Part shown: positions 11,566 through 27,371 of the stretch, one piece after another | Layout: every line of letters starts with the position of its first letter | Numbering within the stretch: the first letter of the stretch is position 1 | Source of the DNA: an uncultured Gemmatimonadaceae bacterium | GTDB lineage: Bacteria; Gemmatimonadota; Gemmatimonadetes; Gemmatimonadales; Gemmatimonadaceae | Direction of reading: 5' to 3' | NCBI GenBank assembly: GCA_963829055.1 | Contig: CAWHHI010000016.1 | Location: 864,001 to 928,000 of the forward strand | Length of the DNA: 64,000 bases | Translations under genes and position numbers: made by a program | Notes under the pieces: generated by a model | Databases searched by the model: none | Told to the model about the DNA's origin: nothing | Seen by the model: only the letters and a program-made list of their open reading frames with translations

Positions 11566-13818
11566 TCAACGCGCTCCGTCGCTCGTCGTCGCTGTCTGTG
11601 GCTTCTCGTCCTTCAGCCAGTACCCGAACCACTGCCGGATGCGCGCCCAGCCGATCGACCAGCAGCCACGGCTCGCCGGTTCGCGACAGGTCGTGCGTCG
11701 ACCGCGGATAGCGTAACGAGCTCCACCGGCACGCCCTGCTTCTTGAGCGCCATGAACCACAGGTCGGCGTTACCCATCGGCGTGCGGAAGTCTTCCTCGC
11801 TCTGCACGATCAGCGTCGGCGTGCGCACCTTCGCGACGTGACGGATCGGCGACAGTGAGTCGTACATCGCGAAGTTGTCCCACGGCTTGCCGTAGAACTC
11901 GAACTCCGTGAGGCCCTGCGCGTCCGACGCGCCGTACCAGTACGTCCACTCGCTGATCATGCGATCGGCTTCGGCCGCCTTGAAGCGATTCGTCTTCGTC
12001 GTGATCCACGCGGTCATGAAGCCGCCGTACGATCCGCCGGTGACGCCCATGCGCGTGGAATCGACGTCGGGCCGCTTGGCCACGATGTCCACCGCCTTCA
12101 TGAGATCCTCGTAGTCCTCGGCGCCCCAGCGACCGCGCGTGGCGTACGTGAAGTCACCGCCGTAGCCGCTCGAGCCGCGCGGGTTCGTGTACAGCACCCA
12201 GACGCCGGCGCCGGCGAGGCTCTGGAATTCGTCGAACCAGCCCTCGTTGTACTGCGAGTGCGGGCCGCCGTGGATGTAGAGCACGAGCGGATACTTCTTC
12301 CCCGCTTCGTAGCCGGCGGGCTTCATCAGCCACCCTTCGATCTCGAGGCCGCCGACCGACGGATACGTGAATCGCTCGGCGGTGCGACCAGGCGATCTCG
12401 CTGATTCAGCTTGTCGTTGAACGACGTGAGCTTCCGCTCGCCGGTACCGTCGGCGTTCGCGATGTAGAGCTCCGTCGGCACATCCACGCTCGTGGAGACG
12501 TAGGCGACCGTGCTTCTTCGCCGCGTCGAACGCGAAGCCGTTGAGCCGACGACGTCCGCCGAGCACTTCCTTCGACCTGCTTCGTGCGCGGGTCGAGCCG
12601 GAACAGTGCCGACCGTCCGCCGACCGACGCCGAGATCGCGATCTCGCCCGTGGGCAGCCACTCGTAGACGTCCGGCTCGTACTGCCACGTGCCTAACAAG
12701 TTCGCCGGCTCACCGCCGGCGACGTCGACCGCGTAGATGCGCGCGCGACGCGACGCGCGTCGGCGCCGCCACGAACGAGATCCGCTTCCCGTCCGGCGAC
12801 CAGCGCGAGGTCACCCTCGTTGCCCGCGAACGTCGTGACGCGACGCGGCTGCCCGCCAGTGACCGGCACGACGAAGATGTCCGCTTCGTTGCGCTGGCGC
12901 CTCGTCGCGCTTGGCGTCGTACGGGAGCCGCGCGAGCGAGTCGCGCTCCGCCTCCGACGACCGAATCCGGACGCAGCGCGGGGTCGGCCATGAACGCGAT
13001 CCACTTGCCGTCCGGCGACACGGTCGCGCCGCGGCGCGAGTACGACGTCGTATCGAGCAGGCGCTTCTTCGACCCGTCGAGCTTCTGCACCCAGATCTGC
13101 GCGGGGCGCCAGACGCGCGCCTCACGCGGCCCCGGGAACAAAGCCCTGCCCGTTCGCCTTGTACCGCATGTCGTAGATGTGGCGACCGTCGAATCGCTTG
13201 GGATCGAGCGGCTGCGTGATGGCGCCGTACGGTGGCCGCGCCATCGGCTGCATGGCCGCATACGGATCGCGCCGACGCGTCGAGTCCGCGCTCGAATCGG
13301 GCGTCACCGACTCGCTCCACACGGCGAAGCTCTTGTCGCGCGGCAGCGAGCCGTTCGGGTAGTCGTTCATCTCCGCCGCTTCGCCGCCCGGCTGGTCCAT
13401 GCGCAGCCCCCACGTGCGCGCCTTCGACCCGGGGCGCGTCGAGTTGAACAGCAGATACTTGCCGTCCGCGCGAGAAGCGCGGGTTCGAGCTCTCCGTGCT
13501 CGGCGACGTGTATCGCGTCGCCTCGCCGCCGGCGGCCGGCACGACCCACACCTCGTTGTGCCGCTTGTTCTCGCTCTCGCGAACCGTCGTGACCGTGAAC
13601 GCGACGAGCTTCCCGTCGGGCGAGACGGCCGGCGCGCTCAGCGTCGTGACCCTGTACCAATCGGCCGGCGTGAACGCGCGACGTCGCCCCGCTGGTCGGC
13701 GGCGTCATGACGGCGGCGGCGCGCGTCTGCGCTGCCAGCTGCGGATGCGAGCGCGACGTACGATGCGAGCAACGTCGCGATTGCGATGGCTAGCGAACGG
13801 AGTCGATGTTTGCTTCAC
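11566..13818 (-). CDS. S9 family (prolyl oligopeptidase/acylaminoacyl) peptidase with beta-propeller (many frameshifts; 3' end uncertain)
   Basis: Signal peptide; SPDGK repeats; [27 protein letters not shown] nucleophile elbow; SEEDFRTP. Confidence 0.93.
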
Positions 13819-18075: not shown

Positions 18076-18913
18076 CTACGCGGCGCCCAACCGAGAGGCG
18101 CAATCAGCGGAGATCCGCTCAGGCAGATGCGGCGCTGCGCGACGGGTGGAGACGAGCGTCTGGCGGAACGCGTGCAGCACGCAGCGAAGGCCGCCGTTCT
18201 CCCGCACTTCGCGCGGCGACAGTCCCGTGTATCGCTTGAGCATGTTGCGCAGCGACGCGGCCGACGAGAAGTCGAGCAGCAGCGCGATCTGCTCGACGGA
18301 GCGCGCGGGGTCCTCGAGCATCTGCGCCGCGAGCGTGAGGCGGCACCACGCGATCATCGCGCTCGGCGTCGGCAGTCCGCGCGGTCGCGAGTCGGTCGAC
18401 GAGCGTCTTGCGATGCACGCCGAGCGCGGCGGCGGCGTCGGCGACCGTGACTGCCTGACGAGCGTGCTCGAGCGAGTAGCGGAGAAACGGGACGACGCTC
18501 GGTGGCACGAGCGGTGCGATCGCTTCGAGCACGTGCTTCGCTCCGCAGTGTTCCTGCGCCGTCGTGATGACGGAGCGAAGCGCGACGCCGACATCATCGA
18601 CGCCACGAAGGATTAGATCATTCACACCCGCGCGCGCGAGCGCGAGAATCTCGCGCGATGAGTCGGGAGAGAGCGCGCAGTACGCGACGACGGGCACGCT
18701 CGGAAATCCTTCGCGAATGGTCCGGACCATTCCGAGTGTCGGAGCGCCGGTGCGATCGCGCAGATCGACGACGGCGACACCAACGAGCCCTTCCGTCACG
18801 AGCGCGAGCAGTTCGTCTTGCTGATCGCAGGTTCGAACAGCAGCATAACCGCGAAGCGCTTCCTGAATGCGCGCGCGTGCGGCCAGCTCGCGAACCAAAA
18901 CCGCGACGATCAC
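18076..18913 (-). CDS. AraC-family transcriptional regulator with receiver-like N-terminal domain
   Basis: VAVVDLRD...PSVPVVAY...AGVNDLI (receiver-like); VTVADAAAALGVHRKTL; SVEQIALLLDFSSAASLRNMLKRYTGLSPREVR (AraC HTH). Confidence 0.9.
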
Positions 18914-18942
18914 CGCAAATAATTCGGACTTGGGTTACATGG

Positions 18943-18963
18943 CGTATGGGCATTGCCCATACG
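18943..18963. promoter_or_regulatory. Perfect operator-like palindrome CGTATGGGCA-T-TGCCCATACG
   Basis: 10-bp arms with 1-nt spacer, in the short divergent intergenic region between the AraC gene and the small ORF. Confidence 0.6.
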
Positions 18964-19031
18964 ATGTCGGTCGCCGGTCACGCGACGTGGTAAATGTATC
19001 GCGCCAACCCCACCCCACACTGGAGCGATAC

Positions 19032-19198
19032 ATGTCCCGCACGATCCGCTACGCTGTTCTCTCCCTCGCCGTTGCCGCGACCGACTGCATGCTCGAGCTC
19101 GGTTACCGAACCGACCGCCGCCCGAAGTGCACTAGCGAAGTCCACAGAACGCGTCGCAGTCGTGCGTGTCGTTGGACTTTATCAATCCTAAGGTGTAA
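19032..19198 (+). CDS. Small lipoprotein-type peptide precursor (~50-55 aa; frame disturbed by indels)
   Basis: GGAG at 19022 then ATG; MSRTIRYAVLSLAVAA(T)TACSSSVTEPTAA...; C-terminus either ...VVGLYQS* (19190) or ...QNASQSCVSLDFINPKV* (19198). Confidence 0.6.
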
Positions 19199-20471
19199 GC
19201 GCGAGAGCGCAGCGATCCGGCTCGGTCTCGAGCGCTTCGAGCGACTGGATCACCTGCAGCGACGCGTCGCTCAACGGAGCCTTCGCACGCGTTACGCGCT
19301 GGCTGAGTCGCAGGTATCGCCTTCGGTTCGGTCGCCAGCACGATTTCGAAGAATCCATTCTTGCGCGCCAGCGCACGCGCGCGAAGCCGGTACTCCTCCG
19401 CGCGCGCGGCGTCGCCGACGATGTCGAACGCGTCAGTACAGCGAACTGAGCACGCCGGCGCTCTCGTACGGCAGCGCCGTCGCGGACGAGCGAGTCCTCC
19501 GCCACACGCGCGACCGCGGCGACGAGCTGCGGAGTCGCCGACGCGTCGCCGACGCCACCGCAGCGCCGCCGAGCACGGCAGGCGGAAACGCGTGGAGTCG
19601 GGTCCGCGACGAGCGATGCGAGAAACCCTCGCAGCGCTGCCCGCGGCGTGACCCGCGACCAGGCTCACCTGCGATAGGTTGATCAGGATCTCGGCCTGAC
19701 GATCGGCGTTGCCCTGCGCGAGCTCGTAGCGCTGCCCACCCATGCACGAGCGCCGTGTCTGAGATCGCCCGCCGTGCTGGCCGCGATGAGCAGCCCCTGG
19801 TGCCCGACGCCGCGAGACTCGGACAGGCCAACGTTCTCGGCGCAGCGCGAGGCCCTCGCGCAGACGCGTCGCGCGCCTTCGGGTAGTTGCCGCGAACACG
19901 CGCCGTGACGCCCTTGCCGAGCAGCGCGCGCGCCTGGAGTTCCGGTTCTCCGAATCGATCACCAGCGAGCGCGACGCCTCGTAGAGCTCGTCGGCGCTGT
20001 CGAGATCGCCGAGCGTGCGGCGATACCCACGCCTGGTCGGCCATCGCGAGACCCAGGTCGCGATGCGGCGCAGCCGTTGCAGCAGTGCGCACATGACCCG
20101 AGCGTGCTGAACGCGAGCCAGAGCGCGCCTGCGTCCGCCATCTGGTCTGCGAGGACGCGCGCCGAGTCCACGACCTCGCTCGCCGCGCGCGCCGTGTCGA
20201 TCAGCGGAAGCGCTCCGCGCAAGCGCGCGAGCTGCGAGACCATGGCCGCTTCTTCCGGCGTATCCGGCGAGACCGTGCTCGCGAGATCGCCGATCGCCGA
20301 CGCGCAGTTCTCCGCGATCGAGCGGCGCGCATCACCCTGCGCGCGCGAGAGGCGGTGCAGGCAATGCGCGACGAGCAGCCACACCGTGTCCGAGCGCCCG
20401 AAATCCGTCCGATTCGGGTGTCGACTCAGATCAGCGCGGTACGCTTCGAGCGGCGACTGGAGAGGAAGCAT
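19188..20471 (-). CDS. TPR-like all-helical protein (frameshifted)
   Basis: RTLGDLDSADELYE, QARALLGKGVTARVRGNYPKAR, QAEILINLSQVSL, GDAARAEEYRLRARALARKNGFFEIV. Confidence 0.75.
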
Positions 20472-21574: not shown

Positions 21575-21847
21575 ATGAAACGTGGAACGCTGATCGGCAT
21601 CGTCGTCGCCGCGATCTTCGCGAGCTTTCTCCTCTGGTCCACGCTCTCGGCGCAGAAGACGTCGACTGCGAGGCGTGCGTCCAGTTCTCCGGGAAGCAGA
21701 ACTGCGCGAAGGCATCCGGCACCTCGGAGGCCGAGGCGCTACGCACGGCGGTCTCCACTGCGTGCGGGCCTGTCACGCAGGGAATGAACGAGTCCATTGC
21801 CTGCCAGAATCGGCCGCCGGTCAGTCCAGCGGTGCAAGACTCGTTAG
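21575..21847 (+). CDS. Small membrane-anchored Cys-rich hypothetical protein (frameshifted)
   Basis: MKRGTLIGIVVAAIFASFLLWSTLSAQ..DCEACVQFSGKQNCAKASG...TACGPVTQGMNESIACQNRPP..RCKTR*. Confidence 0.6.
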
Positions 21848-22700
21848 GGTACCGTGGCGTTGGCGGGCGCGCGAGGAGGCGGCGGCAGTTGCCGGACACG
21901 CGCCTGAAATTCGTGAAACGTCGGGTCATCGCGGACGAGCGTCCGACCGTCGGCGCGCGACGATGATCGGATCACACGCACGACCGCCGCGATGCGATCC
22001 TCCTCCATCGGGTGCGACGCGAACCAGCCCTCGACCATGTCGGGTCGCTGATCGCGCGTCTCGAGGAGCTTCGCGAACATTGTCGCGATGCCCTGCGGAT
22101 CATAGCCGGCGCGCGACACGATGCCGACGGCCGCCGAATCCGCCTCGAGCTCGTCGCTGCGACTGAACCGCGCGAACAGCGCGGCGCCACCCACGTCGAT
22201 CGCGACGCGGGCGGCCTCGCTCGAGCAGATGTTCGTGAGCCCGCACACCACGGATACGCCCACGTTCGTCTTCTGCTGCTTCTCGATGCGCTCGGCCGAG
22301 TGGCGCAGGAGCACGTGCCCGATCTCGTGTCCGAGCACGCCCGCCAGCTCCGAGCTCGACGTCGCGCGCTCGATGAGTCCACGGTTCACGTAGACGAAGC
22401 CACCGGGCAGCGCGAACGCGTTGAGGACCTCGGCGTCCACGATACGAAAGCGCCAGTCACGATTGCGGTCGTCACTCGCGGTGGCGAGCGCCGTCCCCAG
22501 GTTCGTCACGTAGCTGTTCGCGGCATCATCGGCGACCATCGGCACCTCGCGCTCGATCTGCGCCGCAGCCTCCTGGCCGAGTGCTTTCTCCTGCTCATCG
22601 CCGACGGTACACGCGACGCATCGCCATCGCGATGCCGGCAACGAGTACCGCGGCCCGGGCAGTGTTCGGCAATTCCCTTTCTCCCCTTGGGGTGTCGTCG
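21844..22700 (-). CDS. M48 (BepA/YfgC-like) metalloprotease (start approximate)
   Basis: LNAFALPGGFVYVNRGLI, ELAGVLGHEIGHV, FSRSDELEAD, SHPMEEDRI. Confidence 0.92.
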
Positions 22701-22761
22701 CCCGAGATGGGCAAGACACGTTCCCCGTACAGCTCGGCCTCGAGCAGTAGCCAGCGGAGCG

Positions 22762-24733: not shown

Positions 24734-27371
24734 TCATTGCTGCGTGGTGCCGCGAATCCTCACGGTGCGAGTGAGCTCGTCTTCGGCCTGAAGGATCTTC
24801 TCGCGAATGTCACGCGGCAGATCCGCGTGCTCGCGAAGGAAACGATCGACCGCCAGCAGCGACTCGGCGCTCGTCTGCCCTTCGAGGAACGACGACAGCC
24901 ACGATCCGAGGAAGAAGATCCGCCGGTTCGTCTGGATCCAGCGCAGGGAGTCGAGCGCGGGAATCAGGTAGGGCCGAGTGAGGTCCGACTGGCGGACCGA
25001 GTTGAAGCCTTCGAGGCTCGCGGTTACCCAGTCTTCGTTGAGCGCCTCGTCCGCGAAGTAGCGCTGGAAGTACTCGCGCTTGACCTCCGGGATCAGGGCG
25101 TGCCGCCGCGGCGACGAACGCGCGACGCTTCCCTTCCGAGCCGGAGTCGCGACTCGCTTCGGCGGCGAAGCGTCGCTCCGCCGAGCGACTCCTTCGCTCG
25201 ATGAGCGCGGTGACGATTGCCCAGCGCGTCGGCGCCCGCAGCGGCGCGCCGGCCGCTTGCGGTGCTGTCGAGCAGCGCATCGAGATGCGACGAGCGCCGC
25301 GGGCGTTCCCGCGACGCGAATGTACGTGTCGAGGTACGGCTTTCGGATGCCGTACGGTCGCGACGCGTCCGCCGACGCCTGCGCGCAGCGCCTGCTCCAC
25401 CGAGGCCAGCGCCGAGTCTCGCCGCTCCGGCGGCAGGTACGCGAGCATCGCGCGTCCCACGCGTCCGAGCACGCCAGACACGATCTGCTCGTCGCGTTCG
25501 TTCGGCAGCTCGCGCAACGCGAGTGCGGCGATACCGAGCCGGATCGAAGCCGGGCCTCGCGCACGAGGTCCCACAGCGCGCCCCAGAGCATCGCGCGCAG
25601 AAACGAGTCCTGAACGCTCGAGATGTTGCTCCTCGAGCCACGCGACCGTCCGCTCGTCCGGAAGCACGAGCGCGTACGCATAGTCGTCGGCATTCGCGAA
25701 CACGAACGTCGGGCGAGACGCGCGCTTCGGGCAGCGCGGACGACCGTGCTCTCGGCGTCCAGCGACACGCGGCAGCCTAACGACGCCACCGTCCGACAGG
25801 CCGACGATCACGCTCGTGCGAATGGGCCACGGCTCCTTGCCGGACAGATCCTGCGCGGCGCGCTGACGAAGGATCGAGCCGTCGTCTGCCCATCGCGAGC
25901 CTTGCTTGAGCACCTGATCGATCATCGGCATGCCGGGGCGAAGGATGTACTCCTTGCCCCAGCCGTCGAGCGATCGACCACTCTCGGCGCCGATCGCGGC
26001 CAGCAGGTCGCGCCACGTCGCGTTGCCGTACGCGTGCGCGGTCGAGAAACCGGCGGAGACCGCGCTGAAACGCATCGGGACCGACGAGATAGTCGAGCTG
26101 CTTGAGAACGACGGCGCCTTGTTGTAGACGATCGCGCCGTAGTTGCTCTTCGCCTGATCGAGATTCGCGAGCGACTGCCAGACCGGTGTCGTGCCGCGCG
26201 TCTCGTCCACGGCGTACGCCGCGGGCTTGTTGCGCAGGTAGAACGTCTTCCAGACACCGGACGACGTGTCGAGCGACGCCTGCATCTTCGCCGCCATGTA
26301 CGTGGCGAAGCCTTCCTTGAGCCACAGGTCGTCGAACCAGCGCATCGTCACGAGATCGCCGAACCACTGATGCGCGACCTCGTGGTAGATCGTCGCGGTG
26401 CGTCCGAGTCGCTGCGTGAGCGTCGGCCGCTCGCGGAAGATGAAGCGGTCTTCGTTGTAGAAGATCGCGCCGGGGTGCTCCATGCCGCCGAACGGGAACG
26501 CCGGCGCGAGCAGGACGTCGAGCTTCTTGAATGGGAACGGTCGCGCGAAGTAGCCCTCGAGCCACCGCGCCGCCACATCGTTCGCGACGATGATCGAATC
26601 AGCTCTCGGCCTCGGCGACGCGTGACTTGCGCACGTACATCGTGATCGGCCGCTTGCTCGCCGACGATGTCACCGTCGCCCACGGTCCGGCCGCGAACGC
26701 GATCAGATAGGTGCTGATCGGCTCCGTCTCGGCGAACTCGGTGCTCGGCAGGCGTGGCCGCTGTCGGCGACATGCCGTGGAGGTCGCCGGACCGTTCGCG
26801 AGCACTCGCCACTCCCGGCGGTGCTCGCAGTCGCAGCGAGACTCTCGCCTTGAGGTCCGGCTGATCGAAGCACGGAAAGAGCTGATTCGCGTCAGCCGGG
26901 ACGAGCAGCGTGTAGAGGTATTCCGCTCCGTCCGTCGCGTCGCGATAGCGGATGATGCTGGCGCCTGCCGCCGCGATCTTCGTGACGAAGCCGATCGTGA
27001 CGACGTTCTCGCCGACGACGACGTCGCTCGCAGGCACTCGGAGGTGCGCGCCGTTGAACTCGCGGTGACGCGATGCGCCTTGCCGTTCACCTCGACGGCA
27101 CCGAGTCGCTGGCCGCGGAAATCGAGGATGACATCGCCCGGCTCGTGCCACGTGGAACCGCGCCGTCACCGTTCCTCGCGACGAGTCGCGCTCCGTGAGG
27201 TCGAACGACAGCGCGTAGCGAACATCGCGGATCTGCGCCGCACGAGCCGTCGCGAGCGCGCGCGACACACCGGTTCCCATGAGCGAGTCCGCTGGTCCGC
27301 GAACCGTATGCCGCCGGCGGATTCCCGGACGTGGCGATCGCGAACAGCACTGCGGAAACGGTCAGCGGCAT
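24734..27371 (-). CDS. M1 family aminopeptidase (frameshifted)
   Basis: FPCFDQPDLKA, ISTYLIAF, GGMEH, HEVAHQWFGDLVT...LWLKEGFATY, VYNK. Confidence 0.95.

Follow-up and report, generated by a model that had tools for sequence, protein, structure and literature searches.

The window analyzed here, a 64,000-nucleotide stretch of the genome of an uncultured Gemmatimonadaceae bacterium (GenBank assembly GCA_963829055.1, contig CAWHHI010000016.1, positions 864,001 to 928,000; G000:C16:864001-928000), contains three genes that are a real regulatory cassette conserved across the phylum Gemmatimonadota: an AraC-family regulator with an N-terminal pseudo-receiver (18119-18913, minus strand), a small lipoprotein-type precursor (19032-19198, plus strand), and a stand-alone, all-helical tetratricopeptide repeat (TPR) protein that is a candidate cytoplasmic receptor (19188-20471, minus strand). 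Sequence comparison and structure models suggest that the cassette probably encodes an autoinducing peptide signaling loop resembling Rap/Phr, with a lipoprotein as the precursor of the signal and the AraC protein as the output. The original prediction had located all three genes correctly and had the AraC gene on the right strand, but the position it gave as the AraC start, 18076, marks where an alternative-frame open reading frame (ORF) ends. Its proposals that the small ORF would be conserved beside TPR homologs and that the three genes would be syntenic in relatives are both borne out across the phylum.

The linkage was established in 92 distinct loci, namely those in a pool (L016-L153) that include the TPR C-terminus and at least 250 nucleotides past it. 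A small ORF, defined as lying on the strand opposite the TPR gene with a ribosome-binding site, a charged N-region, a hydrophobic stretch, and a lipobox, is found by rule on the expected strand in 86 of the 92 loci, on the TPR strand (the control) in none of the 92, and in 4 of 3000 random 430-nucleotide segments of this genome. The six loci that fail the rule are the window itself, two in which the ORF can be recognized by eye (L100 and L103), and three with none. An AraC gene lies 30-1200 nucleotides downstream of the TPR gene in 88 of the 92, and two loci with AraC shifted upstream retain the ORF. Since none of eight AraC paralog loci without a TPR gene has such a lipobox ORF, the small ORF follows the TPR gene. 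A second batch of 56 TPR loci comprised 21 already known, 32 new ones with the ORF, and 3 failing the rule, one of which has the ORF by eye. Within the genus, all six other genomes hold the TPR gene (77-90% identity over the first 114 amino acids); five carry the entire cassette on a single contig with intact frames (TPR 420-422, ORF 53, and AraC 263 amino acids), and in the sixth it is divided between two short contigs. A TPR profile, with only four candidates scored in each genome, matches 58 of 401 phylum genomes belonging to 6 of 12 families, and among 50%-identity representatives it matches 396 clusters at E 1e-30, the best 150 of which span 197-516 amino acids. Of 42 related-locus rows, 41 are labelled Gemmatimonadota or Gemmatimonadaceae; one locus (L057) is from an unpublished genome (G013), and no conclusion rests on that row. 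A viral collection, queried with close-range patterns only, yielded no relative of the AraC partner.

The window, about 67% GC, carries many single-base indels. Over 5.8 kb aligned with L238, a 93% identical metagenomic contig whose frames there are long and open, all window genes carry indels: 6 in an RNA helicase gene, 7 in an isochorismatase gene, 3 in AraC, 4 in the small ORF, 25 in the TPR gene, and 5 in a DUF1572 gene. Because every gene is affected, and mostly by one-base insertions, the indels are most likely long-read consensus or assembly errors. Decay of the TPR gene specific to the window strain is possible, since its indel density (25 in 1.3 kb) exceeds that of the helicase gene per base. 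Among public sequencing runs, no RNA run is listed as a holder and no DNA run holds more than 0.13 of the words; contigs from four rhizosphere runs contain relatives that are mostly less than 90% identical and were unusable to polish the window.

The small ORF runs from an ATG at 19032 to a stop at 19196-19198 and is frameshifted in this assembly. As had been proposed, it has a ribosome-binding site (GGAG, 19022-19025, plus strand) and a lipoprotein-type leader, in which a charged N-region and hydrophobic stretch precede a lipobox Cys codon at 19090-19092 (plus strand), and its 3' end overlaps that of the TPR gene, by 11 nucleotides. The C-terminal heptapeptide DFINPKV (19175-19195, plus strand) is the candidate mature signal. 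This tail had been read with some uncertainty, and the reading is correct: two close metagenomic relatives (L236 and L255) share the ending QSCVS-x-DFINPKV with two Cys, and close-relative ORFs end in DFINPKV or a variant. In the window clade (39 loci), the tail consists of one to five copies of a seven-residue unit, D/N-x-x-N-P-x-x. The terminal heptapeptide singled out by the original prediction, present here in one copy, is exactly the unit that relatives carry as tandem repeats, and therefore a conserved repeat unit. The small ORF is under protein-level selection: copies of the unit in 33 multi-copy ORFs differ by 141 synonymous and 11 amino acid variants, and the ratio of nonsynonymous to synonymous polymorphism (pN/pS) among five same-genus copies is 0.31. 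The 86 precursors are 39-88 amino acids long (median 57.5; closest relatives 53-54). Their linker, before the C-terminal unit, can carry a Cys pair; after the lipobox Cys, 31 ORFs have no further Cys and 55 have two. The count is never odd, an indication of a disulfide and hence of export. The residue at +2 after the lipobox Cys is mostly Ser, Ala, or Gly, and Asp in two. The small ORFs match no family above cut-off. Tails in other clades are lineage-specific, with Pro-Trp-x ends, a Cys-closed ring, or different repeats, and on a quick TPR tree the peptide class follows the branching, with 6 changes against 38 when shuffled, as expected from co-inheritance; we do not count this as co-evolution.

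The TPR gene (ATG at 20471, stop at 19188-19190; heavily frameshifted here) encodes 420-424 amino acids in close relatives and 418-434 in ten full-length homologs, which were considered along with one contig-truncated copy. A model built from a 137-row alignment (predicted local distance difference test score 95) has four N-terminal helices, in which A10, D14, and W31 are conserved, seven TPR-like hairpins, and capping helices. A GAF-like N-terminal domain, also considered, does not appear in the all-helical model. No export leader was seen in the protein, and a domain scan found no helix-turn-helix (HTH), in line with what had been proposed; TPR_12 scores above cut-off in four of eight homologs, and the other four have TPR matches below cut-off. 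Searches by PDB sequence, Pfam, and NCBIfam gave generic TPR matches only and no RRNPP family. By fold, the best bacterial match is Rap-phi105 with its peptide (Z 22.1, root-mean-square deviation 4.7, 297 residues aligned), followed by MalT domain III (21.3), RapH-Spo0F (20.9, covering model residues 25-370), Rap-pLS20 (20.4), RapI (20.2), NprR (18.2), and AimR (17.0), and Foldseek agrees; the Rap-type alignments have 9-12% identity.

Among the 68 of 86 rows left after thinning at 80% identity, conservation within peptide classes is higher at predicted groove positions of the TPR protein than at outer ones (0.49 versus 0.34), and so is the difference between classes (0.29 versus 0.16, p ~1e-4, with sites not independent). 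Two predicted groove residues track single peptide residues, a pattern we regard as suggestive. In all 39 training loci, which are those of the window clade, Asn at unit position 1 pairs with Asp or Glu at TPR 336; at unit position 6, His or Asn goes with Arg at TPR 148, Lys or Arg with Trp, and Leu, Met, Trp, or Ala with a hydrophobic residue, the window copy combining Trp148 with Lys. Pairing predictions fixed beforehand held in 31 of 31 informative new loci for the first pair and in 25 of 25 for the second, and in L172 a pairing change is nested within another clade.

The AraC gene, which has 3 extra bases in the assembly, gives HTH_18 a match at E 4.8e-12 on its frameshifted 3' part. An intact ortholog is 97% identical over the first 178 amino acids, and relatives are 263 amino acids long, with a C-terminal double HTH (PF12833, 54.1 bits against a cut-off of 33.6). 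The N-terminal domain (residues 1-133) is modeled as a receiver (REC) fold, closest to NtrX (Z 18.6, root-mean-square deviation 2.1, 129 aligned). The receiver-like domain of the original prediction can be refined to a pseudo-receiver: in 88 AraC partners, at active-site columns placed from the strands of the model, the acceptor Asp is present in 57 and Glu in 20, the first acidic position is Trp, Arg, or Val, the Thr/Ser site has Thr in 12, and the conserved Lys site is occupied by Arg, Gln, Ala, or Glu. With the acidic pair, conserved Thr/Ser, and Lys missing, it lacks most of the active-site residues of a phosphorylatable REC domain.

Between the AraC start and the peptide-gene start lies a conserved two-half-site element (18934-18971, plus strand; half-sites at about 18934-18947 and 18954-18967, a 20-nucleotide period), the candidate AraC operator, followed by a -10-like hexamer, TAAATG (18991-18996, plus strand), in which the conserved A is kept and the last T is replaced by G. 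Across 82 intergenic regions, a 12-nucleotide direct repeat, scored at 9 or more matches, has a period of 20 in 20 loci and 21 in 14, with 0-4 for other periods; 33 of the 82 regions have it at period 20 or 21, compared with about 3 when shuffled. A perfect palindrome at 18945-18963 was rejected as the element; it is not kept beyond close relatives, and we therefore read the element as two half-sites. A matrix from the 39 window-clade loci finds three sites above 11 bits in the 7.8-Mb genome, the cassette site at 56.5 and two others at 42.8 and 41.1. The element pattern occurs two to three times per genome in all seven genus genomes, where control matches number 0, and in the family it matches 24 of 151 genomes, all 24 of which hold the cassette; two have 10 and 7 sites. 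At 19 of 21 non-cassette sites (eight genomes, some sites orthologous), the -10 positions, which lie outside the matrix, have A at exactly offset 58 and T at 62; of 71 cassette sites, 99% carry A58. The layout is, by analogy with AraC/RhaS, that of a putative activator-dependent promoter, with the second half-site abutting the -35 region. The proposal that the AraC protein is the transcriptional output gains from this conserved element and the fixed spacing of its -10-like hexamer, and we infer that it is the output of the cassette. Genes after non-cassette sites are mostly regulators and sensors (NarL-type, hybrid kinases, LuxR-type, and five distant full-length homologs of the cassette AraC), along with Kelch or PASTA proteins.

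Some individual sites deserve mention in their own right. This genome has two further sites: C16:43012 (L155) has a -10-like hexamer and is followed by a short ORF of no known family; C17:234892 (L154) may be a relic, because it has no such hexamer and runs into a convergent gene. In two other genomes (G444 and G445), operator-like sites precede the five distant AraC homologs and a LuxR-type regulator (L203, L204, L206, and L210), after which come secreted-looking ORFs (DsbA-like, beta-propeller-like, and an 83-amino acid Cys-rich one) that may be a second regulatory tier. Orthologous operator-like sites in the same two genomes (L208 and L211) precede a conserved run of ORFs (about 625 amino acids, 250 amino acids, and more), the first of which, scanned from L208, has no Pfam match.

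The cassette also has relatives with altered composition. The same genome contains a second, intact cassette (G000:C11:152279-154620; L029:6280-8620) with a 434-amino acid TPR protein, a 60-amino acid lipobox ORF, and AraC, in which the tail is of a Cys-closed, Pro-Trp type and the operator matrix finds no match; it also encodes pseudo-receiver AraC paralogs with neither an upstream TPR gene nor a lipobox ORF at G000:C12 ~360000-360730 (L030) and C19 ~129850-130630 (L031). This combination fits separate channels. TPR-AraC pairs that are 46-135 nucleotides apart and have no small ORF (L101, L102 (G411), and L152) may be orphan or eavesdropping receptors. In family f4, AraC lies upstream of the TPR gene in L094 and L097, and a lipobox ORF with an acidic linker ending NNN is still found downstream of it; in family f2 (L103-L111), seven loci share a receiver (response-regulator) gene beside the cassette. 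Look-alike TPR clusters in Bacteroidota and Acidobacteriota appear at 0.94 in the ESM Atlas. A lone 646-amino acid TPR-AraC fusion (P0151) was rejected as evidence of TPR-AraC interaction; it is a single sequence with an internal REC deletion on one 2.6-kb metagenomic contig, and may be an artefact.

In the signaling loop that we favor, the precursor would be exported through Sec and signal peptidase (SPase) II as a lipoprotein, with a disulfide in its linker. Proteolysis would release the seven-residue unit, probably by a cut before the Asp or Asn that opens each unit, and an Opp/Dpp-type transporter would re-import it. The TPR groove would then hold the unit, with the C-terminal end of the unit at an arginine patch of repeats 2-3 (148, 151, and 181) and the opening residue close to repeat 7 (336). 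Without peptide, the N-terminal helices of the TPR protein may hold AraC inactive, as RapF does ComA, which is the least certain step; peptide binding would free AraC to activate the peptide promoter, thereby closing a positive feedback, along with a small regulon made up largely of other regulators and sensors. We prefer this relief of inhibition, by a modest margin, to a wiring in which TPR and peptide together act as co-activator. The host genome encodes SPase II, and on contig C19 adjacent genes for SBP_bac_5 and oligo_HPY proteins represent an Opp/Dpp-type system. Peptidase genes lie near the cassette in the window (S9 at 11613-13551, M48 at 21844-22719, and M1 at 24810-27280) and their synteny extends to 12-19 of 52 loci, almost all of the window clade; they are candidates for processing or turnover, or mere chromosomal neighbors.

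Several observations weigh against this reading. Binding, processing, uptake, and expression are all predicted, and in comparison with Bacillota the lipid anchor of the precursor and the two membranes make both release and uptake less direct. The small ORF is absent in three of the 92 loci (L101, L102, and L152). Among same-genus copies the heptapeptide is no more constrained than the rest of the precursor (pN/pS 0.42 versus 0.23-0.34), and its last codons are double-coded where they overlap the TPR stop. The top fold matches of the TPR model are eukaryotic, LGN (Z 24.4) and Pins (22.6), and no RRNPP chain is among its 55 PDB sequence matches; because of this, the Rap likeness may be generic to TPR folds. 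The groove positions are placed from the general TPR register, not from coordinates, and the between-class difference of groove and core positions (0.29 versus 0.24) is not significant (p 0.07). As for the residue pairs, the columns were picked after looking, and 280, 386, and 290 separate the training set equally well; the new loci are mostly close kin of the training loci, with new events only in L191 and L172; independent pairs on the tree number 3 + 3, all concordant, at p 0.25 each; and L184/L216, outside the count, has Lys148 with Asn at position 6. Only 3 of 39 window-clade loci pass the direct-repeat test, their half-sites having diverged yet each being conserved, and binding of AraC to the element is judged from position and spacing. 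Finally, no peptidase or transporter in the flanks of 52 loci (2-6 kb) is common to all clades.

The same data can be read in other ways. The main rival, unlikely in our judgment, is that the circuit is cell-autonomous: the TPR protein would read the cell's own periplasmic fragments or unexported precursor and serve as a timer, or as a monitor of lipoprotein export or periplasmic proteolysis. The predicted lipid anchor of the precursor and the M1, M48, and S9 peptidases near the window-clade cassettes suit such self-sensing, and the comparative evidence for binding fits it equally well; lineage-specific tails and two to five identical units, however, suit a signal that is released and diluted and has specificity groups, as in the duplicated Phr and RRNPPA propeptides described in available text of PMC9765709 and PMC11343458, and the second cassette of this genome has a different tail without this operator. 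Alternatively, the lipoprotein could remain anchored and serve as a kin tag at contact range, exposed at the outer membrane or on vesicles and sensed by the TPR protein only after direct transfer or by a separate membrane sensor. We consider this improbable. The lipobox is present in 86 of 86 ORFs (by selection), and the prevailing Ser, Ala, or Gly at +2 would direct sorting to the outer membrane under the E. coli Lol rule; in some genomes sensor kinases do follow the operator, but the cassette itself has no conserved membrane sensor next to it, and it is a TPR protein without export leader whose predicted groove residues track single unit residues.

Two further explanations fare worse. A leader followed by tandem cores resembles multi-core precursors of ribosomally synthesized and post-translationally modified peptides, whose expression the TPR and AraC proteins could control without binding the product. 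Here, however, the leader carries a lipobox and is an export signal, residues of the TPR protein go with those of the unit, and the flanks of 52 loci share no modifying-enzyme family within 2-6 kb, although a distant enzyme is possible; we give this explanation very little chance. Lastly, the frameshifts in the window copy and its overlap with the TPR stop could suggest that poor assembly created the small ORF, or that it merely shadows the 3' end of the TPR gene, with its neighbors linked by chance. That idea, to which we attach practically no credence, is refuted by intact ORFs at 86 of 92 loci against none on the control strand and 4 of 3000 random segments, and by the synonymous excess.

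Known systems offer partial precedents. The RRNPP(A) signature, as given in the available text of PMC10075063, comprises a propeptide of 10-100 amino acids with a Sec/SPI leader at the strict level or Sec/SPII at the relaxed level, a receptor of 250-500 amino acids with TPRs, and adjacency of the two genes. The cassette agrees in propeptide size, in receptor size and TPRs, and in adjacency (86 of 92 loci), and its leader, by our own lipobox pattern rule, fits the relaxed but not the strict level. For common descent with Rap, NprR, PlcR, Rgg, PrgX, or AimR there is no sequence support, and the fold match to Rap is high but below LGN and Pins; we therefore do not file the cassette as RRNPP. Like the Rap-Phr cassettes of Bacillus and its phages and plasmids, it has a stand-alone TPR protein without HTH, extra N-terminal helices (four here; the RapH alignment, compared for the Rap N-terminal three-helix bundle, begins at model residue 25), an adjacent small propeptide predicted to be exported, and a short C-terminal unit that is sometimes repeated, with fold matches at Z 20-22. 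Rap proteins act by relieved inhibition on ComA and Spo0F, targets of response-regulator type (PMC3601965, in the part available), and RRNPPA propeptides may repeat their unit in up to 6 copies, according to accessible sections of PMC9765709, tandem repeats being described also in those of PMC11343458. Unlike Rap-Phr, the cassette shows no detectable sequence homology, resides in a diderm host, carries an SPase II lipobox instead of an SPase I leader, has its peptide gene on the opposite strand and convergent with the receptor gene, has a Cys-pair loop in 55 of 86 precursors, and includes a dedicated pseudo-receiver AraC that cannot be a normal phosphatase substrate. It shares with NprR-NprX, PlcR-PapR, and AimR-AimP a TPR groove (predicted here) for a unit of 6-8 residues and specificity groups; NprR, PlcR, and AimR act on DNA or RNA themselves, whereas the cassette TPR protein, without an HTH, depends on a separate regulator.

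A model for the co-activator wiring is found in MxiE-IpgC and InvF-SicA, where, as here, an AraC protein is controlled by a partner without a DNA-binding domain. IpgC is a TPR protein, and the co-activator chaperones of type III secretion systems are about 155 amino acids long. In these systems, as the available text of 10.1101/2022.04.20.488988 describes, the AraC regulator of type III secretion has a chaperone as co-activator that is itself controlled by binding polypeptides. Those chaperones bind secretion substrates in type III secretion loci, whereas here a TPR protein of 420 amino acids accompanies a dedicated micro-lipoprotein; one distant TPR homolog has a weak match to TIGR02552 (E 2e-7), well short of the cut-off. 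AraC itself uses direct repeats 4 bp apart, with half-sites of 17-18 bp at PBAD/PRha-type promoters (PMC11983282, in the part available), which resemble the element in having two half-sites by the -35 region and a size close to its 20-21-nucleotide period; unlike AraC and RhaS, the regulator here has a REC-fold N-terminal domain, not a sugar-binding one.

Peptide signals read by cytoplasmic TPR proteins have been described from Bacillota, and diderm phyla are credited mainly with small-molecule signals, at least in the text of PMC10075063 available. No paper on this cassette was found in the literature searched, a search outside the scope of which most subscription journals fell, and RRNPP surveys could list it in their supplementary tables. 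Tentatively, and with the balance tipped slightly against it, Gemmatimonadota may have evolved intracellular peptide communication independently of Bacillota RRNPP systems, with a micro-lipoprotein precursor, a non-RRNPP TPR protein, lineage-specific tail channels (linear, repeated, or disulfide-closed), and a pseudo-receiver AraC atop a regulator cascade. The proposed loop is directly testable and could be rebuilt in a laboratory strain, since the candidate ligand DFINPKV, cognate and non-cognate variants, two specificity residues, the operator, and target promoters are all specified. If it did evolve independently as outlined, it would be a phylum-wide system of cell-to-cell peptide communication with a cytoplasmic receptor in double-membraned bacteria. 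Conserved in a soil phylum that is abundant and has hardly been cultured, it would extend the logic of peptides and TPR proteins across the outer membrane and would show lipoproteins as precursors of C-terminal signals.

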